A DNA stretch of 64,000 bases from Candidatus Dormiibacterota bacterium (GTDB taxonomy: Bacteria > Chloroflexota > Dormibacteria > Aeolococcales > Aeolococcaceae): the NCBI GenBank assembly GCA_035552595.1, contig DASZKZ010000056.1:207-64206 (forward strand). Direction: 5' to 3'. Positions 16,834 through 44,362 of the stretch are shown here, piece after piece. Position 1 is the stretch's first letter. Each line of letters begins with the position of its first letter. A model generated the notes under the pieces. That model worked only from the letters and a program-made list of their open reading frames with translations. It was not told where the DNA came from and ran no database searches. The position numbers and the translations under genes are program-made.

Positions 16834-16859
16834 GGCGCGCCCTCCTTCGAGTGCGCGCC
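16834..16859 (-). promoter_or_regulatory. Intercistronic stem-loop enclosing the permease Shine-Dalgarno
   Basis: GGCGCGC (16834-16840) and GCGCGCC (16853-16859) form 7-bp arms. The 12-nt loop carries the complement of GGAGG, 8 nt before ATG 16832. Confidence 0.3.
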
Positions 16860-16901
16860 GATGTCCGGCCCGGTGTGATGGATGCCATTGCCCTGACCCT
16901 C

Positions 16902-18173: not shown

Positions 18174-18287
18174 TCCCTCACGCCGGAACCGGCGTCACAC
18201 TTGGCGGACATCCCTGGAAGGTTTCGAGCACCGGAGCCAGTCCCCCAACCCGGGCCCAGGAGCACCCCGTGGGAAGATCAGGAGCGC

Positions 18288-24154: not shown

Positions 24155-25406
24155 GCAGCTGAGCCCGATGCCGGATCACCCTGCGCTCGTCGAGCGCGCG
24201 CGCGCCCAACAGGCGGCGGTGATGCGCCGCACCGAGTCGATGCGCGCGGACCTCCCCCTTCGCTACCTGCGCCAGCAGGCGCACCTCACGGCGCCGGCCT
24301 CCGAGTACCGGCTCGCCGAGAAGGCGCTGTCGGGCGCGTACGCGATCGCCACCCGGCTGCTGCAGCGATACGCGATCACGCCGGGCCAGCTCGCCGACCG
24401 CCTCGGGGTCGACGTCGCAATCGTCGCCGCGGCGCTCGAGGAGAGTGCCGCACCACTGGTGCTCATCGATCTGGAGGACGGGGTGGCCCCATCCATGGTC
24501 GCCGAGGCCCGCGCCAACGCGGTGCGGCTTCTCCGCGACGTGGATCGGGGGCCCGCGCTCTGCTTTGTGCGCCCTGTCGGCGTCACCAATCCGCGCTGCG
24601 CCGACGACCTGGTCGAGCTCCTCATCGGCGCCGGCGGCGGTCTCCCCCCCGACGCCTATCCGCTCGACGGCATCGTGCTGCCCAAGGTGCGCCATGTCCA
24701 CGAGGTGGAGTGGGTCGACTCGCTTCTCGGCTCCGTGGAGGAGGCGCTCGGGCTGCCTCGCAACCGCATCCGGGTCAGCTTCCAGGTGGAGACCGGCTGG
24801 GGGGTGCTGAACCTGCCCGCGCTGGTGGCCGCGGGGCTGGCCCGCCTCTCCGGCGTGATCCTCGGCACCGTCGACCTCAGCGCCGATGTCATGCTGCCCA
24901 GCGTCCGCTACCGCCACCCCGTCTGCGAGTGGGCGCGAACCATGATCGTGCTGGCCGCGGGGAGCGCGGGAGTTCCGGCCATCGATGGCATGACCCTGGA
25001 CTTTCCGGTGGGCCTGCCCGGCCTCGACGCCGCCCAGAACCACGACCTGGTGCTGGATCGCATGAGGGCGAACTTCGACGACGCCATGCACTCGATCGAC
25101 CACGGTATGTCGGGACGGTGGGTCGGCCACCCCCTCCAGCTGGTGGCCACCGCGATCGCCTTCCGTCACAGCTTCTCGCCGGCGACGATCGAGCGGGACG
25201 TGGCCACGGTGGAGAGCTTCGCGCAGAGCCTGAGCGCTGACCGCGGCGCCGCCGCCGGCGGCGGTGGCGAGCTCCTCGACGTCGGCACCGACCGGCACGT
25301 CCGCCAGCTGCTGCGCCGCGCCACCGCATGGGGGCTGCTGACCCCGGAGCGCGCGGCCGGCCTCGGCATCGTCGACGCGCGCGAGGCGGAGGCTCTGCCG
25401 GCGTGA
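24144..25406 (+). CDS. HpcH/HpaI aldolase / citrate-lyase-beta (CitE)-like acyl-CoA lyase family protein, long form
   Basis: LVLIDLEDGVAP..CFVRPVGV..DGIVLPKVRHVHEV..FQVETGWGV..LGTVDLSADV. ATG 24144 overlaps the HyuB 3' end by 11 nt. The protein has an N-terminal extension of about 110 aa. Confidence 0.7.
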   Translation: MQTEQLSPMPDHPALVERARAQQAAVMRRTESMRADLPLRYLRQQAHLTAPASEYRLAEKALSGAYAIATRLLQRYAITPGQLADRLGVDVAIVAAALEESAAPLVLIDLEDGVAPSMVAEARANAVRLLRDVDRGPALCFVRPVGVTNPRCADDLVELLIGAGGGLPPDAYPLDGIVLPKVRHVHEVEWVDSLLGSVEEALGLPRNRIRVSFQVETGWGVLNLPALVAAGLARLSGVILGTVDLSADVMLPSVRYRHPVCEWARTMIVLAAGSAGVPAIDGMTLDFPVGLPGLDAAQNHDLVLDRMRANFDDAMHSIDHGMSGRWVGHPLQLVATAIAFRHSFSPATIERDVATVESFAQSLSADRGAAAGGGGELLDVGTDRHVRQLLRRATAWGLLTPERAAGLGIVDAREAEALPA

Positions 25407-26647
25407 CCACCTCCACCACCGGCGGCACGCCCCGAACCACGGCGGCTGCGCAGCCGGACACCCGTCCCCTGGCCAATGTCCGGGTCCTGGACATCGCCTC
25501 GTTCATGGCCGCTCCCATGGCCGCCATGTGGCTCGCCGACTTCGGCGCTCAGGTGGTCAAGGTCGAGCACCCTCGCGGCGACATGATGCGTTCGTGGGGC
25601 AGCGTCAAGGATGGCACTCCCCTCTTCTGGAAGATGGTCGGCCGCAACAAGCGGTCGGTCACCATCGACCTGCACCATCCCGACGGACAGGAGCTGCTCC
25701 GCCGCATGGCCGCCAAAGCCGACGTCGTCGTCGAGAACTTCCGCCCCGGCACGCTGGCCGGCTGGGGCCTCGATTACGAGCGTCTCTCGGCGATCAATCC
25801 GCGCCTGGTGATGCTGAGCGTCTCGGGCTTCGGGCAGACCGGGCCGTACAGCCCGCGGGCCGGGTTCGGCACCCTGGCGGAGGCGATGAGCGGGTACGCA
25901 TTCTCGACCGGCGATCCCGACGGACCGCCGACCCTGCCCTCGTTCGGGCTGGCGGACAGTGTCACCGGTCTCTGCGGCGCCTACGCCGTGCTGCTCGCCC
26001 TCCACGAACGCGACACTGTCAGCAACCGCGGGCAGAGCATCGACCTCGCCATCTACGAGCCCATGATGGTGATGATGGGTCATCAGTTCGTCGAGTACGA
26101 CCAGCTCGGCATCGTGGCCCAGCGGCTCGGCTCACGCTTGCCCTTCGCGGCCCCGCGCAACGTGTTTCTGACGCGCGACAAGCGCTGGGTGGCGATGTCG
26201 TGCAGCGCGCAGAGCGTCTTCGAGCGGGCCTGCTCCGCGATCGGCCATCCCGAGCTGGTCCACGATGCGCGCTTCACCGACAATCGCGCCCGGACCGAGA
26301 ATTACAAGGCGCTCGACGACATCTTCGGCGAGTGGATCGCCGCCCGTCCCGCCGAGGAGGTGCTGACCACGCTCAACGACGCGGGGGGGGCCGCGGCCCC
26401 CATCTACGACGTCGCCGACGTCTTCGCCGATCCGCACTTCCAGTTCCGCGAGAACCTGGCCTCCGTTGCCGACGAAGACCTCGGCGTGGTGCGCATGCAG
26501 AACGTCGCGCCCAAGCTCTCGCGCACGCCCGGTCGGATCGATTGGACCGGTCCCGCGCTCGGTGCTCACACAGCGGAGGTGCTCGATGAATGGATCGGAA
26601 TGGGCGAGGACGAGGTCTCCACTCTGCGTGCGCAGGGTGTGATATAG
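25403..26647 (+). CDS. Family III CoA-transferase, paralog 2
   Basis: LANVRVLDIASFMAAPMAAMWLADFGAQVVKVEHP..NFRPGTLAGWGL. GTGA overlap with the CitE-like gene. Confidence 0.85.
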   Translation: MTTSTTGGTPRTTAAAQPDTRPLANVRVLDIASFMAAPMAAMWLADFGAQVVKVEHPRGDMMRSWGSVKDGTPLFWKMVGRNKRSVTIDLHHPDGQELLRRMAAKADVVVENFRPGTLAGWGLDYERLSAINPRLVMLSVSGFGQTGPYSPRAGFGTLAEAMSGYAFSTGDPDGPPTLPSFGLADSVTGLCGAYAVLLALHERDTVSNRGQSIDLAIYEPMMVMMGHQFVEYDQLGIVAQRLGSRLPFAAPRNVFLTRDKRWVAMSCSAQSVFERACSAIGHPELVHDARFTDNRARTENYKALDDIFGEWIAARPAEEVLTTLNDAGGAAAPIYDVADVFADPHFQFRENLASVADEDLGVVRMQNVAPKLSRTPGRIDWTGPALGAHTAEVLDEWIGMGEDEVSTLRAQGVI

Positions 26648-26726: not shown

Positions 26727-27506
26727 ATGGCGGCGAGCCGCAAGGGGGGCGGGCTGTCGAAGTCTGTGGCGACGACGGACAGGACGGGCCAGCGCGCGAC
26801 GACGGCCGGTGCCCGCGCCCGGCAGTCGCGCGACTCCGATGGCGCCCTGGCGCCGACCACGGTCAGCGATTACGTCACCAACCGGATCAGGGACGCCATC
26901 CTCGAGGGGACGTTCGCGCTCGGCTCCCGTCTCGATCAGCAGCAGATCGCTGAGGAGATGGGGGTCAGCACCATCCCCATCCGCGAAGCCCTGCGACGGC
27001 TCGAGGCCAACGGGCTGGTGCACATCCACCCGCGTCGAGGCGCGTTCGTCGCGGAGTTCTCCCAGAAGGAACTGATCGACATCAAGCGCATCCGCGAGAT
27101 GCTCGAGGAGCTGGCCACGCGCCTGGCCGCGCCCCGACTCGATGCCGACCAGCTGGACCGGCTGACCGCGCTCAACACGCGCATGGCCAAGCTCACCGCC
27201 GGCGCCAAGGCGGCGACGTGGAGCGAGCTGAACCGTGAGTGGCACTTCATGCTGTACTCGGCATCCGACTCGCCGATCCTGATCGAGATGATCAAGACCC
27301 TGTGGGATCGATCCAGCCTGTACCGCCACGTGTACGGCGGCTCCTCGGGGCATCGTCAACACTCGGTGGCCGAGCACGCCGAGGCCATCGCCCAGATCCG
27401 CGCCGGCAAGAGTGCGGCGGCGGCGCGAACCATCCGCAACCACATCTTCGGGGCCAGCGCGCGGTCCTTCATCCCCGCCGACGGGGAGCCGAGCGCCGCC
27501 CGGTGA
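26727..27506 (+). CDS. GntR-family transcriptional regulator (FadR/FCD subfamily)
   Basis: Winged helix-turn-helix LDQQQIAEEMGVSTIPIREALRRLEANGLVHIHPRRGAFV plus a helical FCD-like C-terminus. GGGAGGAG precedes the ATG. Confidence 0.85.
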   Translation: MAASRKGGGLSKSVATTDRTGQRATTAGARARQSRDSDGALAPTTVSDYVTNRIRDAILEGTFALGSRLDQQQIAEEMGVSTIPIREALRRLEANGLVHIHPRRGAFVAEFSQKELIDIKRIREMLEELATRLAAPRLDADQLDRLTALNTRMAKLTAGAKAATWSELNREWHFMLYSASDSPILIEMIKTLWDRSSLYRHVYGGSSGHRQHSVAEHAEAIAQIRAGKSAAAARTIRNHIFGASARSFIPADGEPSAAR

Positions 27507-28876
27507 GCATCGCGCCCACCCACCGCGCTCTCGAAGCCGGCGCCGGAGCCGGCACCACCGGCCGCCTGACAGCGCAGCTCGACCTGCTCACGCCGTCGGA
27601 ATCCCAACTGAGCCCGCGGCTCACCGACCTCGTGGTCGACGCGCTCGGCGTCGCCGTCGCCGGGCGTGGCCAACCGGTGTCCGTCGCCGCCGCGAGCATC
27701 GTCGGATCGAGCCGTACGCTGTGGGACCGGGCGTGGCTGCACGGTGTGCAGATGCATGCCCTCGATTTCGACGACACCCACGAAGCGTCGCTGTGTCACA
27801 CCGCCGTGGCCCTGCTCCCGGGACTGCTGGCCGCGGCGCTGGAGCGCTCCCTGCCCGCCACCCGGCTGCTCCAGGCCCACCTCTTCGGCGTCCGCGTGGT
27901 CGACTTCCTGGCGCCCCTGGGACCGCGCTTCAACGAGATGGGGCTGCACTCGACCGGCCTGGTCGGCACCCTGGCGGCCGCCGCGGCATCGTCGTGGCTG
28001 CTCGACGGCGACCCCGGCGTGAGCGCGGCGGCGATGGAGTTCGCCGCCCTGACCGCCTCCGGCCTGGGGGCCGCCTTCGGCACCGACGCCAAGCCGATCC
28101 AGGCGGCCCGGACGACCGAGGCGGGCCTGCGCGCCGCGCTGCTCGCGGGTGCCGGGGTGGGCCCGCCCCACGGGGCGGCGCTTGGGCCCCGGGGCCTGGT
28201 CGCGCTCTGGCTCGGTGAGGAGGTGATCGACACGCTGCCCTGGGAGACCATGGCGCCAGAGGCGGTCAGCCAGGTGGCGCTGAAGCCCTATCCCTCGTGC
28301 TTCCTCACCCACTCCACCATCGACGCGATCCTCTGGATCCGCGACCAGCTGGGCATCCGCGATGTCGCCGACGTGGCCCTCGTCGAGGTGGTCGCGCACC
28401 CCGTCGCCATCGCGCTCGCCGACAAGACGGCGCTGCGCACCGCGACCGACGCCAAGTTCAGCCTGCGCTACTGTGCCCGCGAGGCGCTCCTCCGCGGGGT
28501 TCCGGTGGTGGGCAGCTTCGCCGACCACGTCTGGCGCGAGGTCATGGCCGACCGGGAGGGATGGAGCCGCTGGGTGGATCGCGTGGAGGTCCGCGCCGAC
28601 CGCGACCTGCCCAGGGTGGGCGCTCGCGTGGTGCTCCGCACCGTCGACGGCCGCACCTGTGCGCGCGAGGTGATGGCGCCCCATGGCAGCGCCGCCGACC
28701 CGCTGACCGCCACCGAGGTCGACGACAAGTTCCGCGCCAACTGCGCCGGAGCGATGAGCGACGCCCAGGTGGAGGCGGCTCTGGCCGGGGTGCGAGGCCT
28801 CGCCGGCGTCGCCGACCTGGGGGACCTCACCGTGTTCTGCGAGCTGCTGCCGCAGGTGGAGCAGCCCACCCCCTGA
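27503..28876 (+). CDS. MmgE/PrpD-family protein, paralog 2
   Basis: ..VVDALGVAVAG..HALDFDDTHEASLCHTAVALLP..MGLHSTGLVGTL... GTG 27503 overlaps the GntR stop (GTGA). Confidence 0.8.
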   Translation: MSIAPTHRALEAGAGAGTTGRLTAQLDLLTPSESQLSPRLTDLVVDALGVAVAGRGQPVSVAAASIVGSSRTLWDRAWLHGVQMHALDFDDTHEASLCHTAVALLPGLLAAALERSLPATRLLQAHLFGVRVVDFLAPLGPRFNEMGLHSTGLVGTLAAAAASSWLLDGDPGVSAAAMEFAALTASGLGAAFGTDAKPIQAARTTEAGLRAALLAGAGVGPPHGAALGPRGLVALWLGEEVIDTLPWETMAPEAVSQVALKPYPSCFLTHSTIDAILWIRDQLGIRDVADVALVEVVAHPVAIALADKTALRTATDAKFSLRYCAREALLRGVPVVGSFADHVWREVMADREGWSRWVDRVEVRADRDLPRVGARVVLRTVDGRTCAREVMAPHGSAADPLTATEVDDKFRANCAGAMSDAQVEAALAGVRGLAGVADLGDLTVFCELLPQVEQPTP

Positions 28877-28885
28877 TCGCCACGG

Positions 28886-30247
28886 TCAGGTGGCTTGCGC
28901 GCCCCCGACCCGCACCGCGATCTCGCGGATCTCGTCGTCGCTGACCACACGCCGGCGCACCAGCCCCTCGTCGACGATGGCCTGCCAGACCTCGCGCATG
29001 CGCTCGCGCTCGACGCGCAGGCCGAGCTGGTCGAGCTTGTCCTGCAGCGACCACATCCCGCTGGTGCGGTTGATGATCCACTGCTTCTCGCCGCCCACCA
29101 CCGACGGCTCGTACACCCAGTGCAGCAGTGGCTCCACCTTGAGCTCCTGGACCACGATCTCGGTCCCGCCCCAGTTGTGCACCGCCCTGCCGGTCACCGC
29201 ATGGGAGTCGGCGACGCGCACCCCGGAGATGTCCTCGACCAGGCGCGACAGAGAGGTCATCTTCTCCAGCCGGATCCCGGTGCTGACGCCGTAGAGCGCC
29301 TCCAGGGCCAGCGCCATCTGCGCCAGATCGACCTGGCCCGCGGTCGCCGAGATGCCGTTGACGGACACCTCGGTGACCTCGACCCCGGCGTGAACGGCCG
29401 CCAGCGCGTTGGCCACGCCCAAACCGAAGGCGTTGCGGATGTAGGTGCCGATGCGCTGCTTGGGCGCGTACCTGCGGACCATGCCCACGATGTGGTTCCA
29501 GCCCTCGGGGGCGATCCCGGCGGCACCGTCGGAGAGCCAGATCTCGTCGATCTCCGCCTCCGCCATGGCGGTGCAGAACCGTTCCAGGTGCTCGTCGTCG
29601 ACCAGAGTCAACAGGTTGATCCCGGCGCTGCAGCGCAGCCCGTGGCCCTTGATGCGCTCGATGAGCCGGCGCGCGCGCGCGATCTCCTCGTCGAGGGACA
29701 TGGGGACGCCCAGCTCACGCCAGTCGCCGCCCTCCCAGGCCACCCGGTACGCCTCCGACCAGTAGATCGGCGTGATCTCGGGCAGCGACGGCAGCCAGAA
29801 CTCGGCCAGGGTGACCCCCACCTCGGCGGCGATGTCGACCATGCGCTCGGTCATCGTCGCCCCCATCTTGACCTGGAGATCGGGACGCATGGAGCGCAGG
29901 TGGGCCACCTCCTCGCGGAGGTCGGACGTGCTCATCCCCCAGCCGTGCGCGGACACCTCCATGTCGGATACGCCGGCGTCGAGCAGGGCCTCGCCGAGCC
30001 GCCGGCGCTGGCCGCGGTCGAGGGTCACGCCGGGGGTCTGCTCGATGACGCGCAGGGTGATGTCGCGCAGCGTCGTGGACTGCGGGTAGTGGTCGGGGAA
30101 GGGCGCCCCCAGCACCGCGGGATCGCGGTTGTAGGGGCTCACCGCCCACCGACCCGGCTGGTAGCTCCCGGGGCGGCGCCGGCGCGCGAACGCCTCGCGC
30201 ATGAGGCGCGCCTCCTCGGCGGTCAGATGGGGAGGATCGGTGCTCAC
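28886..30247 (-). CDS. DRE-TIM metallolyase-fold protein (IPMS/homocitrate synthase/HMG-CoA-lyase-like) with substituted metal ligands
   Basis: LRDITLRVIEQTPGVTLDRGQRRRLGEALLDAGVSDMEV aligns to DxTLRDGEQ...L..aGv..iEv. IGTYIRNAFGLGVANALAAVHAGV aligns to lHxHNDxGlAvAN. The GTG start overlaps the IPMDH-like stop (GTGA). Confidence 0.6.
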   Translation of the reverse strand: MSTDPPHLTAEEARLMREAFARRRRPGSYQPGRWAVSPYNRDPAVLGAPFPDHYPQSTTLRDITLRVIEQTPGVTLDRGQRRRLGEALLDAGVSDMEVSAHGWGMSTSDLREEVAHLRSMRPDLQVKMGATMTERMVDIAAEVGVTLAEFWLPSLPEITPIYWSEAYRVAWEGGDWRELGVPMSLDEEIARARRLIERIKGHGLRCSAGINLLTLVDDEHLERFCTAMAEAEIDEIWLSDGAAGIAPEGWNHIVGMVRRYAPKQRIGTYIRNAFGLGVANALAAVHAGVEVTEVSVNGISATAGQVDLAQMALALEALYGVSTGIRLEKMTSLSRLVEDISGVRVADSHAVTGRAVHNWGGTEIVVQELKVEPLLHWVYEPSVVGGEKQWIINRTSGMWSLQDKLDQLGLRVERERMREVWQAIVDEGLVRRRVVSDDEIREIAVRVGGAQAT

Positions 30248-31356
30248 GCAGTCGCCGCCTCGGTGGCGCCGCTGTCCAGCTGCGTGACGATGGAGGCGGT
30301 GAGGGCGGTGGTGCTCGCCGTCCCGCCCAGGTCCGGCGTGAGCCGGTCGCGCGCCGACAGGACGCGCGCCACCGCCGCGTCGATGTCGTGGCCGGCGTCG
30401 CGAAGCGCGCCCAGGCCGGCGCCGCGCCCCAGCCACCCGAAGAGCAGGGCCCCGGAGAGGATCTCCGCGATGGGGTTGGCGATGCCGCGCCCGCTGATGT
30501 CGGGCGCCGAACCGTGCACCGCCTGGGCCATGGCGTGGTCCTCGCCGATGTTGAGCCCGGGGGCCAGCCCCAGACCGCCGACCAGGCCGGCCGACGCGTC
30601 GGAGAGGATGTCGCCGAACATGTTGGTGGTGACGATGACGTCGTGCTCCGCGGGACGCGTGATCAAGCGCATCGCGAAGGCGTCGACCAGGAAGTCGTCG
30701 AGCTTGATGTCGGAGTACTCGGCGGCCACTTCGCGGCAGCAGGCGAGAAAGAGCCCGTCACCGCGGCGGAGCACGTTGGCCTTGTGCACCGCCGTGACCT
30801 TGCGGTGCCGGCCTCGATACCGGGCCAGCTCGAAGGCCTGCCGGGCGACGCGCATCGACGCGCGCCGGGTCACCACGCGCAGCGAGATCACCATGTCCTC
30901 GTCGGGCCGGAACTCGCCGTTGCCGTCGAGCACGTTGCGGTCGGCATAGAAGCCCTCGGTGTTCTCGCGCACGATCACCAGGTCGACGGCGTCGGAGACC
31001 GAGGCCACACCTGGCCACGACCTCGAGGGCCGCACATTGGAGTACAGCTCGAAGTTCTTGCGCAGATACCCGCTGGGATTGCGGAAGCGCAGGTCGCCCA
31101 TGGGATAGGCGTGATGGCCGACGGGGCCGAGGATCCAGCCAGGGATCTCGCGCAGCCGGGCCACCACCGCGTCGGGCAGCGTCGAGCCGTGCTCGCGCAC
31201 CGCCGCGGTGCCGGAGGGAAGCCACTCCCAGTCGATGGCCACGCCCCGGATGCGCGCCGCCTGCTCGAGGACCTCGACGGTGGCGGCGACCACCTCGGGC
31301 CCGATGTCGTCGCCCTCGAGCACAGCGATGGTGACCCGCTGGGCGGCGGCGGTCAC
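30244..31356 (-). CDS. Isocitrate/3-isopropylmalate dehydrogenase family protein
   Basis: VTIAVLEGDDIGPEV..VIVRENTEGFYA..NMFGDILSDASAGLVGGLGLAPG..HGSAPDISGRGIANP. Confidence 0.85.
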   Translation of the reverse strand: MTAAAQRVTIAVLEGDDIGPEVVAATVEVLEQAARIRGVAIDWEWLPSGTAAVREHGSTLPDAVVARLREIPGWILGPVGHHAYPMGDLRFRNPSGYLRKNFELYSNVRPSRSWPGVASVSDAVDLVIVRENTEGFYADRNVLDGNGEFRPDEDMVISLRVVTRRASMRVARQAFELARYRGRHRKVTAVHKANVLRRGDGLFLACCREVAAEYSDIKLDDFLVDAFAMRLITRPAEHDVIVTTNMFGDILSDASAGLVGGLGLAPGLNIGEDHAMAQAVHGSAPDISGRGIANPIAEILSGALLFGWLGRGAGLGALRDAGHDIDAAVARVLSARDRLTPDLGGTASTTALTASIVTQLDSGATEAATA

Positions 31357-32315
31357 CGTGACCGCGCCCCGGCGGGATGGCTGGCGCCCGCGGGCCGCGC
31401 GGCGGCCGCCAGCGCGCGGCTGTTGACCACGGTCACTGTGTGCACCTCGTCATCGCTGAAGCCCGCCTCGAGCAGCCGGTCTGCCATGAGCGCGAGCGCG
31501 TCCTCCACCGGCGGGTTGTGGGGCTGGCCGAGGTCGCCGGACACGACCGAGCTGGCCACGCCCGCCTCGCGGATGTTGGCGAACATCACCCCCCACGGGA
31601 TCCTGCCGGCGTACGGGGTGCCGAAGCAGCGCTCCAGCAGGCAGCCGCGCTCGGCGAGCCGCCGCTGCGCCTCCACGGCGAATCGCTGCGAGGGAAAGTC
31701 GGGATGGGTGATCACGATCCGCTCGACACCCTCCTGCCGGGCGGCCTCGACGACAGCGAGCACCTCGTCGGCGTCGAGGTGGCCGGTGCAGAGCACCATC
31801 CGGTGCTCCGCGATGACGCGAAGCACGGCGCGGACGGCCGGCAGCACCTCGCCACCCTCACCGAGCACCGCCACCGGACCGGCGGCGACGCCCCTGGCCT
31901 CGAGCTCCGACTTCAGCACCGCCCACGCGGGTGGGGTTCCGGTGGCGGTGACGTTGTTCACGGATGTCGCCTCGTTGACGGAGTCGAAGGTGGGCAGCCA
32001 GACGAAGCGGCCTCCGGCGCGCGCGAAGACCTCGACCGCCATGGGGTTGATCCCGCCCACCGACGAGTTGAGGGTGACCGCACCGAGCACGTCCACCCCG
32101 GTGGCGGCGCGGACCACGGCGGCGCGCTCCGCTGTCGGTGCGTAGTGCGACTTGAGCACGAACCCGCCGAGTCCGACCTCGCGCACCCGTGCGGCGAGGT
32201 CGAGGTCGCTGATCCGCCGCGGGAAGACGTCCGGCATGACGTGAACATGGAGGTCGTAGCCGCCCGCCACCAGCTCGCGAGCGCGCCGCGTCGGCTCCGG
32301 ATGTGCGGCGCTCAC
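31353..32315 (-). CDS. Amidohydrolase-superfamily-like TIM-barrel protein of unknown function
   Basis: DLHVHV (HxH) near the N-terminus, then TGH (about aa 179), ITHPD (about aa 204) and SGDLG (about aa 261). This is an HxH..H..H..D metal-ligand pattern. 4-nt overlaps on both sides. Confidence 0.55.
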   Translation of the reverse strand: MSAAHPEPTRRARELVAGGYDLHVHVMPDVFPRRISDLDLAARVREVGLGGFVLKSHYAPTAERAAVVRAATGVDVLGAVTLNSSVGGINPMAVEVFARAGGRFVWLPTFDSVNEATSVNNVTATGTPPAWAVLKSELEARGVAAGPVAVLGEGGEVLPAVRAVLRVIAEHRMVLCTGHLDADEVLAVVEAARQEGVERIVITHPDFPSQRFAVEAQRRLAERGCLLERCFGTPYAGRIPWGVMFANIREAGVASSVVSGDLGQPHNPPVEDALALMADRLLEAGFSDDEVHTVTVVNSRALAAAARPAGASHPAGARSR

Positions 32316-33721
32316 TCAGCCGGGTCCGCCACCGTCAGCTGCATCAGCGCGGCCACGTCGGGAGCATCCCAGCCGTTCTCGAGCCGGGTGAGAAGCTGCT
32401 CGGTGCGCTCCACCCCGAGGGTGCGCTGCACGTTGCCACGGAACTTGCGGCGGTGGTCGTCGGGCGTGAAGGGGTTGGCCGAGTTGCCTCGCTGCGCCGG
32501 CACGTCCTCGAGGAACGTGCGGCCCTCTCGGGTGGTGATCTCCACCCGCGCCGGGAAGCGGTCGGGCTCCATGCGCGCATCGACATGGGCGTGCACGCGC
32601 TCGGCCAGGTCGGTGATGCGCGAATCGGCGAGCACCTCGTCGGTGAAGTCGTCCACCTCCACGGTGCCGCGCACCAGCAGCATGGCGACCGCGTACTGCA
32701 CGCCGAACTTCATGTGGTACGCGGAGGCGGGACGGACCTTGGCCTCCCGGGGCTCGGCGATGATGGGCACGGCGCGCTCGGGGAGGTGCACGTCGATGCG
32801 CTCGATGTCGGCGACGGCGAGGTGCTCGCGACGCACGATCTCGGCAGCGCCATCCATCGACGCATGATTCCACACGCCGTTGGGCCATGGCTTGTACGTG
32901 GTCTCGGGGAGCATCCACCGCTCACCGAGGCCGGCGTCGATGCGATCCAGATCGAAGGTCGCCTCGTCCCCGTGGAGCAGCGCGTTGTAGAACCCGAACC
33001 TCCCCTCGATGACCTCGGCGGGGCCGGTGTATCCCTCGGCGGCCAGCAGGGCGCAGGTGAGACCGCCCTCCACGCCCCAGCCGGGGTGGAGGCGCTTGAC
33101 CCAGCTCCCGTCCACCAGGGTCTGCATCAGCCCGGAGGAGCGGCTGCCCGCCATCCCCAGCGCCATGGTGGTGTGACCGCCATCGAGCCCGAGCAGCCGC
33201 GAGCCGATCCCGGCGGCGGCGAACGGTCCGGCGACCCCGGTGCCGTGCAGGCCACGCTGGTGGAACTGATGCGGTGGCGCGCCCGTGTTGATGCGCAGCG
33301 CCACCTCAGCGCCCAGCACCATGGCGAGAAGGCACTGCGCGCCGGTCGCGCCGGTGGACTCGGCGGCCGCCAGCGCGGCGGGCACCGCCACGGAGCTGAT
33401 GTGCACCGCGGCCACGCCGTTCATGTCGTCGTAGTCGGGACCGTGGCCCACCGCGCCGTTCACGAAACCGGCGAGCGGGGCGGGGAGATGCTGCCCGAAT
33501 CCCATGGTGGTGGCCTGTGGGGTGCCGCCGAAGCGGCCCGCCACGCGCGCCACGATGACGGCGCTCTGCTCGCGCGTTCCCGCGATGCACACGCCCACCT
33601 GGTCGACGAGGCGCCAGCGGGCGTCGTCGACCACGGCGTCGGGCAGTTGTTCGAGCCTGGTGTCGGCGATCCATCGACCGAGGCGTTGCGAGATCGTTGA
33701 CAATCCGGTGGCGGTGGTCAC
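32312..33721 (-). CDS. MmgE/PrpD-family protein, paralog 3
   Basis: ..LVDQVGVCIAGTREQS..GHGPDYDDMNGVAAVHISSV..QRGLHGTGVAGPF... I trimmed the start to GTG 33721, behind AGAGGG. Confidence 0.85.
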   Translation of the reverse strand: MTTATGLSTISQRLGRWIADTRLEQLPDAVVDDARWRLVDQVGVCIAGTREQSAVIVARVAGRFGGTPQATTMGFGQHLPAPLAGFVNGAVGHGPDYDDMNGVAAVHISSVAVPAALAAAESTGATGAQCLLAMVLGAEVALRINTGAPPHQFHQRGLHGTGVAGPFAAAGIGSRLLGLDGGHTTMALGMAGSRSSGLMQTLVDGSWVKRLHPGWGVEGGLTCALLAAEGYTGPAEVIEGRFGFYNALLHGDEATFDLDRIDAGLGERWMLPETTYKPWPNGVWNHASMDGAAEIVRREHLAVADIERIDVHLPERAVPIIAEPREAKVRPASAYHMKFGVQYAVAMLLVRGTVEVDDFTDEVLADSRITDLAERVHAHVDARMEPDRFPARVEITTREGRTFLEDVPAQRGNSANPFTPDDHRRKFRGNVQRTLGVERTEQLLTRLENGWDAPDVAALMQLTVADPAE

Positions 33722-33756
33722 GTGGCCCTCTGCGCGGCGGTGGCTCTCACAGAAAC

Positions 33757-33768
33757 TATATTCTATCG
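33757..33768. promoter_or_regulatory. AT-rich motif copy (d), TATATTCTATCG, between the divergent PrpD paralogs 3 and 4
   Basis: It lies 26 nt upstream of ATG 33795 and 36 nt upstream of GTG 33721. It contains TATATT on the + strand and TAGAAT on the - strand, both -10-like hexamers. Confidence 0.4.
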
Positions 33769-33794
33769 TATCCACGTGTGTACCGAGGAGCCGC

Positions 33795-35195
33795 ATGGCC
33801 GCCGCTGAGCTGACCGACGACCTCAGTCACTTCGTCACCACCGTGCGCCTCGCCGATGTCCCGGATGCGGTGCTCGACGCCGCCAAGCGATCGATCATGG
33901 ACGGGCTGGGGCTCGCCGTCGCAGGTTCGCGAACCGCCGCCGCCCACCTGGCGCGCGAGGAGCTGGAGGCGTACGGATGCGGGGTGGCCGAGGCCACCGC
34001 GCTGGGCACCACGCTGCGGCTGCCGAGCCGGTTCGCCGCCTTCCTCAACGGCCTGGCCATCCACGCCGACGACTACGACGACACCCAGCTCGCCGTGCTC
34101 CCTGACCGCGTCTACGGCCTGCTCACCCACCCCACCGCTCCGGTGCTGCCGGCGGCCCTGGCCATCGCCGAACAGCGCGGCGCGTCGGGCGCCGACCTGG
34201 TGACGGCGTACCTCGCCGGCGTCGAGGTGGAGACCAAGATCGCCGAGGCGATCGCGCCCCGGCACTACGACGACGGATTCCACTCCACCGGCACCGCCGG
34301 AGCCATCGGCGCCGCCGCCGCCGCCGCGCGCATGCTCGGCCTCGACGCCGCTGGGGTGGCCGTGAGCCTGGGCATCGGCGCCTCCCTGGCGGCGGGGCTG
34401 CGCGAGAACTTCGGCACCATGACCAAGCCGCTGCATGCCGGCCGTGCCGCGGAGAGCGGCGTGCTGGCGGCACGTCTGGCACAGCGCGGGTTCACCGCGG
34501 CGCACGACGTGCTCGAAGCCCGGCGCGGCTTCTTCAACGCCGCCGGCGGTGGCTACGACGCGACCATGATCGCGGGGCGCGCCGGCAACCCCTGGACCTT
34601 CGCCGAGCCCGGCGTCTCCATCAAGCCGCATCCCTCCGGCTCGCTCACCCATCCCGCCATGGCCGCGCTCGCCGAGCTCATCGCAGAGCACGACATCGCT
34701 CCCGAGCGGGTGGTGCGGGTCACGGTGGGGACCAACCGGCACATGCCCAACGCGCTCATCCACCACCTGCCCACCGACGAGCTGGCCGCCAAGTTCAGCA
34801 TGGAGTTCTGCATGGCGATCCTGCTGCTGCGGCGGCGCGCCGGGCTCGCCGAGTTCACCGATGAGGTGGTCACCAGCCGGGATGCACAGGCGATGCTGGG
34901 GCGCGTGGAGTTCGGGGTCGATCCCGAAGCGGAGGCGGCCGGCTACAACACCATGACCAGCATCGTCAGGGTCCACCTCGACGACGGCCGCACCCTCGAG
35001 GCCCGCGCCGGCTTCGGCCTGGGCAGCCCGCAGCGCCCCATGGACTCCCAGCGTCTGCTGGCCAAGTTCCTGGAGTGCACGGAGGCGGGCGGGATCTCCG
35101 AGGCGGTCGCGCGAGAGGCGGCCGAGCGCGTCGCCCAGCTGGAGACGGAGGCCAGCCTGGAGCCCATCGTCGCCGCGCTCAGCGCTTCAGCCTGA
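33795..35195 (+). CDS. MmgE/PrpD-family protein, paralog 4
   Basis: MAAAELTDDLSHFV..IMDGLGLAVAGSRT..HADDYDDTQL..DDGFHSTGTAGAIG. GAGGAG lies 5 nt before the ATG. Confidence 0.85.
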   Translation: MAAAELTDDLSHFVTTVRLADVPDAVLDAAKRSIMDGLGLAVAGSRTAAAHLAREELEAYGCGVAEATALGTTLRLPSRFAAFLNGLAIHADDYDDTQLAVLPDRVYGLLTHPTAPVLPAALAIAEQRGASGADLVTAYLAGVEVETKIAEAIAPRHYDDGFHSTGTAGAIGAAAAAARMLGLDAAGVAVSLGIGASLAAGLRENFGTMTKPLHAGRAAESGVLAARLAQRGFTAAHDVLEARRGFFNAAGGGYDATMIAGRAGNPWTFAEPGVSIKPHPSGSLTHPAMAALAELIAEHDIAPERVVRVTVGTNRHMPNALIHHLPTDELAAKFSMEFCMAILLLRRRAGLAEFTDEVVTSRDAQAMLGRVEFGVDPEAEAAGYNTMTSIVRVHLDDGRTLEARAGFGLGSPQRPMDSQRLLAKFLECTEAGGISEAVAREAAERVAQLETEASLEPIVAALSASA

Positions 35196-35212
35196 GCCGG
35201 GCCGCTCCCGGC
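35196..35212. terminator. GC-rich hairpin between convergent genes (possible bidirectional terminator)
   Basis: GCCGGG-ccgct-CCCGGC fills most of the 22-nt gap between the PrpD paralog 4 stop and the MFS stop. There is no U-tract. Confidence 0.3.
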
Positions 35213-35217
35213 GCGGG

Positions 35218-36798
35218 TCAGTCGTGGGTGGTGCGCAGCGGCATCTCGGGCAGCCGGCTGCCCACAGCCACCGCCAGCACCGCGACCACGAGCCCGAACC
35301 AGAAGGCGGCGTCGAGGCCGGCGCCGAGGCTGTCGTGGAGCAGCCTGCTGGCACCGCTGACCACGCCTCCGGGGAGGTGGTCGAGGGTCGACGCCAGCGC
35401 CGCCTGGCCGCGGCTGGAGAGCAGACCCTGGGTGGCCCCCCGGTCGACGGCGTGGCTCACCGCCGCGCTGGCGGGCAGGCGCGAGGCCAGCTCCGAGGTG
35501 AACCTGCCGATGGTCAGCGTGGTCATCACCGAGATGCCGATGACCTGACCGAGATTGTCGAAGAACTGCCGCGAGGAGTTGGCCGCGCCCAGCATGCTGT
35601 AGGGGAAGGCGCTCTGCACCACCGTCGAAGCCAGCGGGAACACCGTGCCCACGCCCAGCCCCAGCAGGGCCATGGCCCCGTACGCGCTGGCCAGGCTCGA
35701 GGCCGGCGTCAGGGTGACCGCCACCGCCATGCCGGCGACCACGATGACCGGGCCGATGACCGCGTTCCAGTGGTAATGGCCGGTGCGGCTGATGGTCTGC
35801 CCGCTGACCACGTTGCCGACCACGAAGGCGGCCATCAGCGGGAGCAGCTGGAGGCCGGCGTCCTGCGCGGTCTCCCCGCGCACCCCCTGGAGGTAGAGCG
35901 GGAAGAAGGTGAGCAGGCCGAAGAAGACCATGCGGATCAGGAAGCTGAGCCCCACCGCATGGAGGAAGACCGAGTTGCGAAAGAGGTGGGGGGACATCAG
36001 CGGTTCGCGCGTCCTCAGCTGGTGGGCGGCGAAGACGGCGAGCATGACCACGCCGAAGAGCCCGGTGACGATCACCTGCGCGGAGAGCCAGGGCAGGCTG
36101 ACGCCGCCCACCGTCAGGGCGATCAGCGCGCCCAGCAGGCCCAGGCTGAGCAGCGCGATGCCCAGCCAGTCCACCGTCGGCTTGCCGGGACGCCGCACCC
36201 GGGGCAGGACCGCGCCCAGGACGAACAGCGCCAGCACGGCGAGCGGGACCGTCACCAGGAACGTCCAGCGCCAGCCGAACTGGTCGGCGATGACCCCGCC
36301 GACGATCGGCCCCATCATGCTGCCGATCCCGTAGTTGGTCATGATCAGGCCCATCCACTTGGCCCGTTCGCGGGGCGGAAAGATGTCGCCGATGGTGGCC
36401 CCGGTGAGCGCCAGCATGGCGCCGCCACCAGCGCCCGTCACCACCCGCCCCGCGATCAGCTCGGGCATGTTCTGCGCCGCCGCGCAGCCCACCGAGCCGG
36501 CGATGAAGGCCACCAGCCCGATCAGGTAGAAGATGCGCCGCCCCAGCAGGTCGGACAGCTTGCCCACCACCGGCACGCAGATGGTGGCCGCGAGCGTGAA
36601 GCTGGCGAACACCCAGGCGTAGAGGTTGACGCCGTGGAGCTCGTCCACCATGGTCGGCGCGGAGTTGGCCACGATGGTGCTGGCCAGCACCGAGATGAAC
36701 ATCACCAGCATGACCCCGGCCAGAGCCCAGGCGCGCCGGCTGCCGGTGATCTGGTGCGAGAGGAGCGCGGTCGGCGCCGCGCCCGGACTGGGGTTCAC
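35218..36798 (-). CDS. MFS transporter (14-TMS DHA2/EmrB-like)
   Basis: 526 aa, about 14 hydrophobic segments, motif GKLSDLLGRRIFY. Confidence 0.8.
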   Translation of the reverse strand: MNPSPGAAPTALLSHQITGSRRAWALAGVMLVMFISVLASTIVANSAPTMVDELHGVNLYAWVFASFTLAATICVPVVGKLSDLLGRRIFYLIGLVAFIAGSVGCAAAQNMPELIAGRVVTGAGGGAMLALTGATIGDIFPPRERAKWMGLIMTNYGIGSMMGPIVGGVIADQFGWRWTFLVTVPLAVLALFVLGAVLPRVRRPGKPTVDWLGIALLSLGLLGALIALTVGGVSLPWLSAQVIVTGLFGVVMLAVFAAHQLRTREPLMSPHLFRNSVFLHAVGLSFLIRMVFFGLLTFFPLYLQGVRGETAQDAGLQLLPLMAAFVVGNVVSGQTISRTGHYHWNAVIGPVIVVAGMAVAVTLTPASSLASAYGAMALLGLGVGTVFPLASTVVQSAFPYSMLGAANSSRQFFDNLGQVIGISVMTTLTIGRFTSELASRLPASAAVSHAVDRGATQGLLSSRGQAALASTLDHLPGGVVSGASRLLHDSLGAGLDAAFWFGLVVAVLAVAVGSRLPEMPLRTTHD

Positions 36799-37949
36799 GC
36801 GTTCAGGCCACCCCGCTCGACGAGCTGCTGCGCGATGACGTTGCGCTGCAGCTCGTTGGTGCCCTCGCCGACGATCATCAGCGGCGCGTCACGGAAGTAG
36901 CGCTCGATGTCGTACTCCGTCGAGTAGCCGTTGCCGCCGTGGACGCGCAGCGCGTCGAGAGCGATCGACATGGCCGCCTCCGACGCGAAGAGCTTGGCCA
37001 TGCCCGCCTCCAGGTCGCTGCGCTCTCCTGACTGGTAGCGCTCGGCGGCGAACTGGAGCAGCTGGCGCGCGGCGGTCAGCCGCGTGGCCATGTCGGCGAG
37101 CAGGTTGCCGACCGACTGATGCTTCCAGATGGGCTTGCCGAAGGCCTCGCGCTGCTGGGCGTAGGCGAGGGCGTCCTCGAAGGCGGCGCGGCCCACACCC
37201 ACGGCGCGCGCGGCCACCTGGATGCGGCCGATCTCGAGCCCCTTCATCATCTGGGCGAAGCCGCGACCCTCCTCGCCGCCCAGCAGCGTGTCCGCGGGCA
37301 CGCGGAAGTTGTCGAAGGCGAGCTCACAGCTCTCCACCCCCTTGTAGCCGAGCTTGGGGAGATCGCGCGACACGGTCAGGCCGGGGCCGTGCTCGACGAG
37401 CAGGATGCTGATGCCGCGGTGGCGCGGCTGCGCCGCGGGGTCGGTCTTGCACAGCAGCGCGATGAGCTGCGATCGGCGCGCGTTGGTGATCCACGTCTTG
37501 GAGCCGTTGACCACGTACCCCTCGCCGTCGCTGCGGGCGCTGGTGAGCATCGCCTGGAGATCGGAGCCGCCGCCGGGCTCGGTCAGCGCCATGGTGGCGC
37601 GCACCTCGCCGGTGGCCATGCGCGGCAGCCAGCGGCGGCGCTGCTCCTTGGTGCCGAAGCGGGCCAGCAGCATGGCCACCACCGAGTGGCCGCCCATGGC
37701 GCCGGCCAGGCTCATCCAGCCACGCGCCAGCTCCTCGGTGACCAGCGCGTAGCACGGCGCCGACACCGCGCCCTCACCGTAGGGCGCGGGCACCGCCAGT
37801 CCGAAGATGCCGATGCGCTTCATCTGTTCGATGAGCCGCTCCGGATACACGTTGCCGTGCTCCAGCTCGCGAGCCGCGGGGCGCACCTCGCGGTCGACGA
37901 AGTCGCGCACCGTGCGCACCACGGCGAGCTCCTCCGCAGCGAGCGTCAT
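36795..37949 (-). CDS. Acyl-CoA dehydrogenase
   Basis: ..ALTEPGGGSDL..NGSKTWITNA..YAQQREAFGKPI..VHGGNGYSTEYDIERYFRDA..EGTNE. Confidence 0.9.
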   Translation of the reverse strand: MTLAAEELAVVRTVRDFVDREVRPAARELEHGNVYPERLIEQMKRIGIFGLAVPAPYGEGAVSAPCYALVTEELARGWMSLAGAMGGHSVVAMLLARFGTKEQRRRWLPRMATGEVRATMALTEPGGGSDLQAMLTSARSDGEGYVVNGSKTWITNARRSQLIALLCKTDPAAQPRHRGISILLVEHGPGLTVSRDLPKLGYKGVESCELAFDNFRVPADTLLGGEEGRGFAQMMKGLEIGRIQVAARAVGVGRAAFEDALAYAQQREAFGKPIWKHQSVGNLLADMATRLTAARQLLQFAAERYQSGERSDLEAGMAKLFASEAAMSIALDALRVHGGNGYSTEYDIERYFRDAPLMIVGEGTNELQRNVIAQQLVERGGLNA

Positions 37950-39106
37950 GCCACGGATCCGGCATCGGCGAGACCGAGCTCGCGAAGGATGCTCTCGGTG
38001 TGCTCGCCCAGCGCCGGCACCGGGTCCATGCGCGCCTCCCTGCCCCGCGGCGTGGCCGGGGGCAGGAGGGCGTCGACGGGACCGCCTGGTGTCTGCACCT
38101 CGCGCCAGCGGTCGCGCTCGCGGAGCACGGGGTGATCGAGGAATTGCGCCACCGAGTTGACCCGTGCGCTGGCCAGCCCGGCGGAGTCGAGAAGCTCGAG
38201 CACCTCGGGCGTGGTCAGTGCGGCGAAGCGGCGGGCGATGATGTCGCTGAGCTCCGCCCGGTTGGCCACCCTGGCGGGGTTGGTGAGGAACCGCTCGTCG
38301 CCGGCCAGCGACGGGTCACCGAGCACGCGTGTGCAGAACGCCGTCCACTCCACCTGGGTCTGAACGGCGATGACCACCGTGCCGCCGTCACCGACCGGCA
38401 CCGGACCGTAGGGTGCGATGGTCGCGTGCTGCGCGCCGCTCCGCTCGGGCTGGCGTCCGCTGTAGCGCGTGTAGTAGGCGGGGGCGCCCATCCACTCGGC
38501 GAGGGCCTCGAACAGGGACACCTCGACGTGCGCACCCTCTCCGTGGCGGGCGCGCTCGTAGAGAGCGGTGAGGATGCCGGTGAAGGCGTACATGCCGGCG
38601 GCGATGTCCGCCACCGAGATGCCCACCTTGGCGACTCCCTGGGGCGAGCCGGTGAGCGCCACCAGCGCCGTCTCGCACTGCACCAGCAGGTCGTACGCCT
38701 TGCGCTGCGCCCAGGGTCCGTCGCCGCCGTACCCGGAGATGTCGCAGACGATCAGCCGCGGGAACCGCCGGCGCAGGCTGGCCGCGTCCAGCCCCAGCCG
38801 GGCGGTGGCCCCGGGACCGAGGTTCTGCACCAGCACGTCGAGGCGGGGAAGCAGGCGTTCGATGACGTCGCGCCCCCGGGGCGACTTCAGGTCCAGGGCC
38901 AGGGACTCCTTGGATCGGTTCAGCCAGACGAAGTATCCCGACTGTCCCAGCACCGACGATTCGTAGCCGCGGGCGAAGTCTCCGCCCTCGGGGCGCTCCA
39001 CCTTGATCACCCGCGCTCCCAGGTCGGCGAGCTGGCGGGTGGCGAACGGCGCGGCCACGGCCTGCTCGAGGCCGAGCACGGTCAGTCCCTCCAGGGGCAG
39101 GGTCAC
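37946..39106 (-). CDS. Family III CoA-transferase, paralog 3
   Basis: LEGLTVLGLEQAVAAPFATRQLADLGARVIKVERP..NLGPGATARLGL. Confidence 0.85.
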   Translation of the reverse strand: MTLPLEGLTVLGLEQAVAAPFATRQLADLGARVIKVERPEGGDFARGYESSVLGQSGYFVWLNRSKESLALDLKSPRGRDVIERLLPRLDVLVQNLGPGATARLGLDAASLRRRFPRLIVCDISGYGGDGPWAQRKAYDLLVQCETALVALTGSPQGVAKVGISVADIAAGMYAFTGILTALYERARHGEGAHVEVSLFEALAEWMGAPAYYTRYSGRQPERSGAQHATIAPYGPVPVGDGGTVVIAVQTQVEWTAFCTRVLGDPSLAGDERFLTNPARVANRAELSDIIARRFAALTTPEVLELLDSAGLASARVNSVAQFLDHPVLRERDRWREVQTPGGPVDALLPPATPRGREARMDPVPALGEHTESILRELGLADAGSVA

Positions 39107-44265: not shown

Positions 44266-44362
44266 TGGTGGGATCGTACGCCGCGGTTGACATGCCTCGA
44301 GAGGGGCAGGCAGACTTCGCCGAGCCGTATTGGCCGTATCAATGGACAGATGGAGGGCCACG

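Follow-up and report, generated by a model that had tools for sequence, protein, structure and literature searches.

The DNA described here is a 64,000-nucleotide stretch of contig DASZKZ010000056.1 from a Candidatus Dormiibacterota bacterium, referred to below as the window. Within it we examined a five-gene locus in which four minus-strand genes (D, C, B, and A, in order of transcription) form an operon, with a fifth gene, E, running divergently from D. Overall G+C content of the window is ~71%, and gene models for A-E were picked from many spurious long open reading frames by the periodicity of G+C at third codon positions (GC3) together with Pfam matches. The locus comprises the following features.

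Gene A: positions 28886-30247, minus strand; 453 aa; HMGL-like (PF00682), E-value 8.8e-29, 101 bits against a gathering score of 29; last gene of the operon.
Gene B: positions 30244-31356, minus strand; 370 aa; Iso_dh (PF00180), 3.2e-89, 300 bits.
Gene C: positions 31353-32315, minus strand; 320 aa; DUF6282 (PF19799), 9.7e-65.
Gene D: positions 32312-33721, minus strand; 469 aa; MmgE_PrpD_N (1e-59) and MmgE_PrpD_C (1e-32); first gene of the operon.
Gene E: positions 33795-35195, plus strand; 466 aa; MmgE_PrpD_N (2e-60) and MmgE_PrpD_C (3e-31); divergent from D.
D/E control region: positions 33722-33794, no strand assigned; 73 nt, AT-rich; -10 box TATAGT for the D operon and an overlapping TATATT on the opposite strand.

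An earlier reading of this DNA, made from the sequence alone (the sequence-only reading), had described four genes coupled by 4-nt overlaps, a 73-nt divergent spacer at 33722-33794, and a family for each protein. These descriptions were correct. The coding strand reads GTGA at all three junctions of A-D (30244-30247, 31353-31356, and 32312-32315), so each GTG start overlaps a TGA stop, and Pfam searches of each protein returned the proposed families. In the PGAP annotation, A (100% identical to HWF57930.1) is a "hypothetical protein," and B and C correspond to HWF57931.1 and HWF57932.1.

The D/E spacer contains a sigma-70-like promoter on the minus strand (-35 TACACA, -10 TATAGT), which is the sole match within positions 28700-35400, where 0.1 were expected. 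Shine-Dalgarno-like sequences lie 5' of both D (AGAGGG) and E (GAGGAG). At 33749-33770 there is a 15-20-nt run of nearly pure A+T, which on the D strand reads ACGATAGAATATAGTTTC in the window and TTTAATATAGGATATATTGC in L001, one of the loci recovered from other contigs (L numbers throughout). The element is kept at the same position in L001, L014, L019, L020, and L022. Within it there are probably divergent -10 boxes that overlap, and it may double as an operator for the GntR/FCD regulator. An alternative start for D, at the upstream ATG at 33796, was rejected, as that stretch is AT-rich with non-coding composition and the N-termini of orthologues fit the GTG at 33721. An Rfam scan of the window found no riboswitch or other RNA. 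At its other end, E adjoins a convergent gene for a DHA2-type major facilitator superfamily (MFS) efflux protein. The 22-nt gap between the two stops (35196-35217) contains a G+C-rich inverted repeat, GCCGGG...CCCGGC, without a T-run, which a simple terminator scan did not report.

We next considered recurrence of the gene set. Neighborhoods were retrieved for a range of A homologues; single-protein scans, which pick up close pattern matches only, gave 8 loci with C against genome contigs and 4 with A against metagenomes. The block of E divergent from D-C-B-A (type 1) is syntenic in seven further contigs from about five metagenomic lineages (L001/L019, L014/L015/L020, L022, and a partial copy in L021), and the five genes listed together in the sequence-only reading thus co-occur outside this genome. 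Identities to the window proteins are 74-78% for A, 67-74% for B, 62-70% for C, 69-71% for D, and 64-67% for E, and E is divergent from D in every type-1 locus. The type-1 flank carries an HpcH/CitE-like lyase, a family III CoA-transferase, a GntR/FCD regulator, and a further MmgE/PrpD gene, and relative to this flank the five-gene block is inverted as a unit in the window. An RraA-like gene stands two genes from D in L001, L014, L019, and L020 and was also seen in L015; a tblastn search found none in the window.

Two further arrangements were observed. In type 2 (L002 and L023), the order is an FAD_binding_2 flavoprotein, a GntR/FCD regulator, a five-gene leucine-isoleucine-valine (LIV)-type ATP-binding cassette (ABC) transporter, a D-like gene, a B-like gene, a PF04909 (Amidohydro_2) gene, and A, the last at 61% identity to window A. 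The DUF6282 slot is thus filled by a non-homologous protein of amidohydrolase fold. This reassembly, in another order and with another amidohydrolase, is the strongest argument that the genes would work as a single functional unit. In type 3 (L024/L025), A is present at 64% identity and is flanked by genes for E-like, PrpD4-like (see below), GntR, and CoA-transferase proteins, with D, C, and B absent; in these loci (e.g., L024:1-7654), A is preceded by an IclR regulator and a glyoxalase/cupin protein. GntR/FCD regulators occur in all three arrangements. Collectively, the operon is real and conserved, and its members come from four known superfamilies and belong to no characterised orthologous group. 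This agrees with the sequence-only reading, as A-E all score far below the NCBIfam equivalog cut-offs and a literature search found no described cluster of this composition.

Protein A retains the fold of its family. Its Pfam HMGL-like match is confined to profile positions 105-260, and its AlphaFold2 (AF2) model (predicted local distance difference test [pLDDT] 94.3, predicted template modelling score [pTM] 0.92) has a complete eight-strand barrel and C-terminal subdomains. The best Foldseek matches are homocitrate synthases (HCS), methylthioalkylmalate (MAM) synthases, and isopropylmalate synthases (IPMS), with a template modelling (TM) score of 0.74-0.83 to the S. acidocaldarius homocitrate synthase 6ktq. 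The metal site of the family, an Asp and an H-x-H, is missing. A had been called a "ligand-less" DRE-TIM protein, and its motifs are indeed DITLRVIEQ, against D[TI]TLRDGEQ in relatives, and YIRNAFG, against HxH[ND]DFG. R-V-I-E-Q and Y-I-R therefore stand at the metal site (Asp to Val; His/His to Tyr/Arg), with the Arg and the Glu-Gln of the strand-1 motif retained. The metal-binding Asp is gone from the whole A family, in which R-D-G-E-Q becomes R-[VT]-x-E-Q. In clade I, Y-x-R replaces H-x-H in 28 of the 28 clusters that cover the motif (57-100% identity to A), whereas clade II has lost the Asp and kept H-x-H, and canonical relatives have both.

Positions beyond the metal site have changed as well. 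Pairwise alignment of A with 6ktq pairs A-E-D-A-T with G-I-N-L-L, D-T-V-G with D-G-A-A, and G-V-H with G-T-E. In HCS and IPMS, we take the Glu of the strand-5 "ED" and the His of S-G-I-H to be catalytic and the Thr of D-T-x-G to bind the 2-oxoacid; by alignment, the equivalent positions in A are Ile210/Asn211 (Glu), Glu363 (His), and Gly241 (Thr). With the metal ligands and the residues aligned with the catalytic Glu and His gone, A does not appear to be a canonical condensing enzyme. A also carries a family-specific insertion of ~20 residues containing a W-x-G-x-D-W-R motif. Arg66, Glu69, Glu97, Asp240, and Asn297 are kept, and His101, Lys127, Glu149, Asn211, Ser239, Tyr269, and Arg271 are polar residues invariant in the clade. 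In the AF2 model, the retained and invariant polar residues sit on the active-site face of the TIM barrel, to which all eight strands contribute such residues, each at the C-terminal end of its strand or immediately beyond it; from their strand positions, Tyr269, Arg271, Lys127, and His101 are predicted to cluster in space.

Constraint on A is the strongest in the operon: its nonsynonymous divergence (dN) is 0.157 against 0.25-0.29 for the other genes when compared with L001, and 0.31 against 0.46-0.56 when compared with L002, values of which only the relative size is meaningful, because synonymous divergence is near saturation and a GC3 of 90% adds bias. Homologues are few. There are 58 clusters at E ≤ 1e-10 in a collection of 5.8 billion proteins, and when 1.84 billion 50%-identity representatives were searched exhaustively with phmmer, only 49 proteins reached E ≤ 1e-30, with the Y-x-R clade amounting to one full-length representative. 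P0306, from a sister lineage (46% identity to A), has Y-x-K at the former H-x-H site and keeps His101 and Lys127, which suggests that a cation is needed at the position of the second His. Relatives that keep H-x-H (33-44% identity) are found in unrelated genomic contexts, so loss of the His pair appears to coincide with recruitment to the gene set. The contexts of canonical-motif relatives P0054 and P0057 and of clade-II loci L003, L016, L017, and L018 were heterogeneous and gave no clue to the ancestral role of A. A scores 3- to 10-fold under every NCBIfam cut-off, and literature searches on DRE-TIM proteins and on this combination of families returned nothing relevant. A decaying pseudogene was considered and rejected on the invariant Y-x-R replacement, the lowest dN, and the invariant polar residues at the strand ends. 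A is a re-engineered, probably metal-independent protein of homocitrate-synthase fold and not a relic.

The alternative that survives best is that A is a non-catalytic pseudoenzyme, for example a scaffold or chaperone-like subunit, or a partner of B, C, or D that binds substrate or has a regulatory role, with the chemistry left to the MmgE/PrpD, amidohydrolase-fold, and Iso_dh proteins. This would account for the missing metal Asp, both missing metal His, and the replaced catalytic Glu, 2-oxoacid Thr, and catalytic His; translational coupling suggests stoichiometric co-production, and several interaction surfaces would conserve A just as well. Against this, the invariant Tyr269 and Arg271 (or Lys), together with the new His101, Lys127, Glu149, and Asn211, line the barrel mouth in the pattern of a live active site, and A persists in L024/L025 without the proposed partners B, C, and D. 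We consider the pseudoenzyme unlikely, and tentatively propose that A may still carry out chemistry without a metal.

Protein C had no homologue in the PDB by sequence, the only matches being spurious de novo TIM barrels, and a literature search found no paper mentioning DUF6282. Its AF2 model (pLDDT 89.7) is a (beta/alpha)8 fold for which amidohydrolase-superfamily structures make up the first 32 Foldseek matches and the majority of the others (TM 0.5-0.6, 10-17% identity), and the amidohydrolase fold ascribed to C earlier is thereby supported. H23, H25, H179, H204, and D261 are invariant in 41 sequences and sit at the strand ends that bear the amidohydrolase ligands (H-x-H on strand 1, His on strands 5 and 6, and Asp on strand 8). 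C is thus a distant member of the superfamily that retains the metal-ligand pattern, and a candidate lactonase or hydratase. The sequence-only reading had raised a lactonase; support for this is weak, and comes from other loci through the PF04909 protein that takes the place of C in type 2, the sole detectable characterised relatives of which are lactonases (fuconolactonase, 4-sulfomuconolactone hydrolase, and a putative 2-pyrone-4,6-dicarboxylate [PDC] hydrolase).

DUF6282 occurs widely (at least 4,590 clusters at 90% identity), and the closest homologues of C share contigs with homologues of A and D. Outside the operon (L006-L013, e.g., L012:6248-9307), the gene directly after DUF6282 usually encodes a PIG-L/LmbE-like protein (58-65% identity); an RraA-like gene (34-56% identity) adjoins the two or lies close by, and a GntR/FCD regulator is often found upstream. 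Hosts include Streptomyces, Ktedonobacteraceae, Solirubrobacteraceae, Anaerolineae, and metagenome-assembled genomes of Actinomycetota. PrpD, Iso_dh, and HMGL genes were not found within 10 kb of these eight loci, indicating that the operon took up one DUF6282 sub-clade. The DUF6282/PIG-L/RraA-like set is in itself a second widespread uncharacterised module and recalls the LigJ/LigK pairing of hydratase and aldolase. The Streptomyces RraA-like copy scored 182 against a cut-off of 179 for one NCBIfam model of 4-carboxy-4-hydroxy-2-oxoadipate aldolase/oxaloacetate decarboxylase, and 159 against 304.5 for TIGR02798.

Protein B is probably a catalytically complete beta-decarboxylating dehydrogenase. 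Its best PDB matches are small NAD-dependent isocitrate dehydrogenases (IDHs; 1.5e-80), followed by Thermus homoisocitrate dehydrogenase (HICDH; 4e-66). Alignments to 6m3s, 6lky, and 3asj show conservation of the motifs LR, NVRP, VRENTEG.Y, HKAN, VD, and GDILSD, which we read as bearing three catalytic Arg, the Tyr, the Lys, and three Asp. Substrate choice in this superfamily is marked in one loop, by S-x-N in IDH, Arg85 in Thermus HICDH, and Glu/Leu-Leu in isopropylmalate dehydrogenase (IPMDH). The loop of B, F-R-N-P-S-G-Y-L-R, has neither the S-x-N nor the Arg85. The best NCBIfam equivalog scores, 316, 314, and 238 bits, do not reach their cut-offs of 510, 540, and 393. Assignment of B as an IDH, HICDH, or IPMDH was rejected on these scores and on the missing loop signatures.

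Proteins D and E had both been called PrpD-family, and the pair is present as described. As a total for the window, two proved too low, since five MmgE/PrpD paralogues lie within 33 kb (7225-8661, 27503-28876, 32312-33721, 33795-35195, and 39103-40326), none of which matches an NCBIfam equivalog. The copy at 7225-8661 is a paralogue of D, 50-54% identical to D orthologues. The closest solved relatives of D are iminodisuccinate (IDS) epimerase (4e-29) and cis-aconitate decarboxylase (CAD; 9e-29), with true PrpD at 6e-5; the same two enzymes are nearest to E, with IDS epimerase at 5e-54, and true PrpD gave no match. With the PrpD equivalog NF042438, D scores 50 bits and E 32 bits against a cut-off of 950, and they are not PrpD orthologues. 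These comparisons place D and E in the epimerase/decarboxylase branch of MmgE/PrpD and not with true PrpD.

Four reactions are known for MmgE/PrpD enzymes: 2-methylcitrate dehydration, cis-aconitate decarboxylation, iminodisuccinate epimerisation, and methylsuccinate isomerisation (PMC12290011). All four are argued to use an enolate on a C2/C3-substituted 1,4-dicarboxylate, with epimerases adding a Tyr as a second base (PMC12290011). We looked for the carboxylate-binding and catalytic set of His, Asp, His, His, Lys, and Lys (PMC12290011), and both D and E have it; H90, D93, H112, H163, K211, and K277 (E numbering) are invariant across eight MmgE/PrpD paralogues and orthologues. Residue-by-residue alignment of E with IDS epimerase matches H85, D88, H99, Y145, H150, K198, and K266. 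E also has the second-base Tyr (Tyr145/His150 in 2HP0), the alignment pairing H-Y-D-D-G-F-H with H-Y-L-A-G-W-H. D, which keeps the conserved His/Asp/Lys set, has His at the Tyr145 equivalent, and its L002 orthologue has Leu. With the full residue set including Tyr in E, and His or Leu in D and its orthologues, E is best read as a two-base epimerase and D as a one-base enzyme, i.e., a dehydratase, hydratase, or decarboxylase. The paralogue at 39103-40326 carries the epimerase Tyr, as E does.

The surroundings of the operon were then characterised by Pfam, with NCBIfam scores where given. The following features are relevant to the interpretation.

TcuA-like FAD flavoprotein: positions 12025-13440, minus strand; best NCBIfam match TcuA, 171 bits against a cut-off of 369.
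LIV-type ABC importer: positions 13441-18194, minus strand; binding protein at 16902-18194.
HpcH/CitE-like acyl-CoA lyase: positions 23994-25406, plus strand; weak NCBIfam matches to malyl-CoA lyase/RipC.
Family III CoA-transferase: positions 25328-26647, plus strand; weak NCBIfam matches to mesaconate or succinate CoA-transferases.
GntR/FCD regulator: positions 26727-27506, plus strand.
Fourth MmgE/PrpD paralogue (PrpD4): positions 27503-28876, plus strand.

Several of these neighbors travel with the operon. Orthologues of the GntR/FCD regulator and PrpD4 (47-57% identity) adjoin the block in L001, L019, L020, L022, and L024 and are syntenic in all type-1 loci; orthologues of the HpcH/CitE lyase and CoA-transferase (58-71%) occur in the same five loci. 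Orthologues of the importer binding protein (61-64%) lie directly upstream of the operon in L002 and L023 and downstream in L021 and L022, with flavoproteins of the same family alongside, and the TcuA-like flavoprotein has an orthologue in L021 at 61% identity. The recurrent ABC importer, flavoprotein, and GntR/FCD neighbors point to catabolism and not to biosynthesis. PDB matches did not narrow the substrate: those of the binding protein were at E 5e-13 or weaker, and those of the flavoprotein were fumarate reductase, ketosteroid dehydrogenase, and urocanate reductase.

Overall, the 64-kb window encodes five MmgE/PrpD proteins, two Iso_dh proteins, two CoA-transferases, and several lyases, as well as a methylisocitrate-lyase-like protein and two enolase-superfamily proteins, and from its gene content this island reads as an organic-acid catabolic neighborhood. 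Between 18354 and 24154 there are a tartrate-dehydrogenase-type Iso_dh that passes the TIGR02089 cut-off, a fumarylacetoacetate-hydrolase-family gene, and hydantoinase/oxoprolinase A and B; in L001, L014, L019, and L020, an orthologue of this Iso_dh (78% identity) is the next gene after A, in convergent orientation. On the other side of the locus, four chained minus-strand genes (36795-41951) encode an acyl-CoA dehydrogenase, a family III CoA-transferase, the Tyr-bearing MmgE/PrpD, and a thiamine-pyrophosphate (acetolactate-synthase-like) enzyme. A MaoC hydratase (44291-45397, plus strand) and the HpcH/CitE lyase (23994-25406, plus strand) are nearby and, except for the thiamine-pyrophosphate enzyme, the set resembles the methylsuccinate/itaconate utilisation cluster of PMC12290011.

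We interpret the locus as a conserved catabolic module, linked to import, that would act on a branched polycarboxylic acid built on a succinate or malate backbone, probably a substituted succinate, a hydroxy-tricarboxylate, or a lactone of one, and assign this reading a probability of about 0.5. The family assignments are established by the profile matches; the catabolic role, substrate, and order of steps are inferred. In this scheme, the LIV-type ABC system would import the acid, and a GntR/FCD repressor would sense it and control the divergent promoter. C would open a lactone or hydrate a double bond, a slot taken in other lineages by the lactonase-clade PF04909 protein. The MmgE/PrpD enzymes would apply enolate chemistry to the 1,4-dicarboxylate backbone, with E as a two-base epimerase setting a stereocentre and D acting as a one-base dehydratase, hydratase, or decarboxylase. 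B could then oxidise and decarboxylate the resulting (2R,3S)-3-substituted malate to a 2-oxoacid with NAD(P)+, and the TcuA-like flavoprotein, where present, might supply or remove a C=C bond. For A, we can propose a metal-independent C-C cleavage or formation, or a hydro-lyase step, on a hydroxy- or oxo-polycarboxylate. As candidate substrates we name stereoisomers of isocitrate, homocitrate, or hydroxycitrate, lactones of hydroxy-tricarboxylates, tricarballylate-like acids, and tricarboxylates derived from lignin.

Several observations weigh against this interpretation. The importer and flavoprotein lie 10 kb from the operon in the window and are absent within 10 kb in L001, L014, L019, and L020, and the flavoproteins of L002 and L023 are ~33% identical to that of the window and so may not be orthologous to it. 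Because L024 and L025 keep A without D, C, and B, the role of A may belong to the wider island rather than to the D-C-B-A operon, and the dN comparison that singles out A is a relative one. The lactonase inference is carried by PF04909 matches at E-values of 2e-6 to 2e-4. The DHA2-type efflux gene beside E could suggest export, and all members come from uncultured organisms.

An opposite direction of metabolism was also considered. The sequence-only reading had likened the locus to 2-oxoacid chain elongation in which PrpD stands where LeuCD would; in a biosynthetic pathway of this or an alkylcitrate type, A would condense acetyl-CoA with a 2-oxoacid, D and C would isomerise the product in place of LeuCD, B would decarboxylate it, and the product would be exported. 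The family make-up mirrors LeuA/isomerase/LeuB, the fold of A includes the C-terminal subdomains of HCS/IPMS, and the DHA2 MFS gene could provide efflux. However, A lacks every Claisen-condensation residue and is not a canonical condensing enzyme, and D and E are nearest to IDS epimerase and CAD, not to dehydratases. In other loci the MFS gene does not recur beside the block, whereas importers and GntR/FCD regulators do, and the flanks are catabolic (CoA-transferases, acyl-CoA lyase, tartrate dehydrogenase, and methylisocitrate-lyase-like protein). The analogy therefore does not hold, and we regard such a pathway as improbable.

Slightly less probable still is a variant of tricarballylate/aconitate utilisation, in which the TcuA-like flavoprotein would oxidise tricarballylate to cis-aconitate, D would hydrate it, and B, as a relative of NAD-IDH, would yield 2-oxoglutarate. 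TcuA is the best NCBIfam match of the flavoprotein, NAD-isocitrate dehydrogenases are the best PDB and NCBIfam matches of B, and tricarballylate has the 1,4-dicarboxylate backbone used by MmgE/PrpD enzymes. Yet the flavoprotein reaches 171 bits of the 369 set for TcuA and B 316 of 510, the loop of B is without the isocitrate S-x-N, housekeeping aconitase and IDH would suffice for the task, and C, E, and the most conserved gene, A, would be left without a role. Finally, that the genes are mere neighbors in a paralogue-rich organic-acid island is very improbable: a family-rich 64-kb window does make such adjacency locally likely, but the three 4-nt start/stop overlaps, the inversion of the block as a unit, and the reassembly of the same four functions in L002 and L023 in another order and with a non-homologous amidohydrolase all argue against it.

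Comparison with known systems places the proposed polycarboxylate module beside, and not within, described pathways. With the LeuA, homocitrate, and citramalate synthases, A shares the TIM barrel, the C-terminal subdomains, and an HMGL-like match above the gathering score; it differs in metal ligands, in catalytic positions, in its ~20-residue insertion, and in having no regulatory LeuA_dimer domain. The methylcitrate cycle (PrpC, PrpD, aconitase, and PrpB) and the LeuA-LeuCD-LeuB or homocitrate modules follow a like logic, in which a hydroxy-polycarboxylate is rearranged and then cleaved or oxidatively decarboxylated, and the likeness extends to MmgE/PrpD and Iso_dh members in the operon and a methylisocitrate-lyase-like gene in the island. 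Here, by contrast, there is no condensing enzyme of citrate-synthase type or competent LeuA type, no aconitase, and no LeuCD; D and E are non-orthologous to PrpD, an amidohydrolase-fold enzyme is integral, and there is a link to an importer. The logic also parallels the succinate-to-oxaloacetate segment of the tricarboxylic acid cycle and, again, the methylcitrate cycle, with a different enzyme at each step.

Two other systems bear comparison. The itaconate/methylsuccinate cluster (ict, ich, ccl, mcd, and mmgE; PMC12290011) uses an MmgE/PrpD epimerase on a free branched dicarboxylate, and its family III CoA-transferase, MaoC hydratase, and HpcH/CitE lyase families occur in the flanks of the window. 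The core operon differs in having no CoA-dependent enzyme and in adding Iso_dh, DUF6282, and LeuA-like proteins that are foreign to that cluster. The LigI-LigJ-LigK route of protocatechuate 4,5-cleavage sets an amidohydrolase-fold lactonase/hydratase, acting on a tricarboxylate, beside an RraA-like aldolase, and in most genomes an RraA-like gene adjoins that for DUF6282. In the window, however, ring-cleavage genes are not found nearby, C is not PF04909, and the RraA-like gene is missing, and that pathway has nothing corresponding to the Iso_dh, MmgE/PrpD, or LeuA-like proteins.

Dormibacterota and related uncultured, actinomycete-like soil lineages are abundant, and little is known of the carbon sources they use. 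An operon that is conserved, linked to an importer, and without a match among described pathways is a concrete target for substrate discovery in these organisms. The locus would give first functions to DUF6282, to an unassigned branch of the beta-decarboxylating dehydrogenases, and to two further MmgE/PrpD subfamilies. More tentatively, A and its relatives could be the first metal-independent members of the DRE-TIM family, with Tyr and Arg/Lys, together with His101 and Lys127, replacing the divalent cation that polarises a hydroxy- or oxo-polycarboxylate, and the operon could encode an undescribed, CoA-independent catabolism of hydroxy-tricarboxylates or lactones in abundant uncultured soil lineages. 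In a fold defined by its metal site, the active site of A has been replaced under strong purifying selection, and A would represent either a metal-free way of working a metallolyase barrel or a well-conserved pseudoenzyme subunit.

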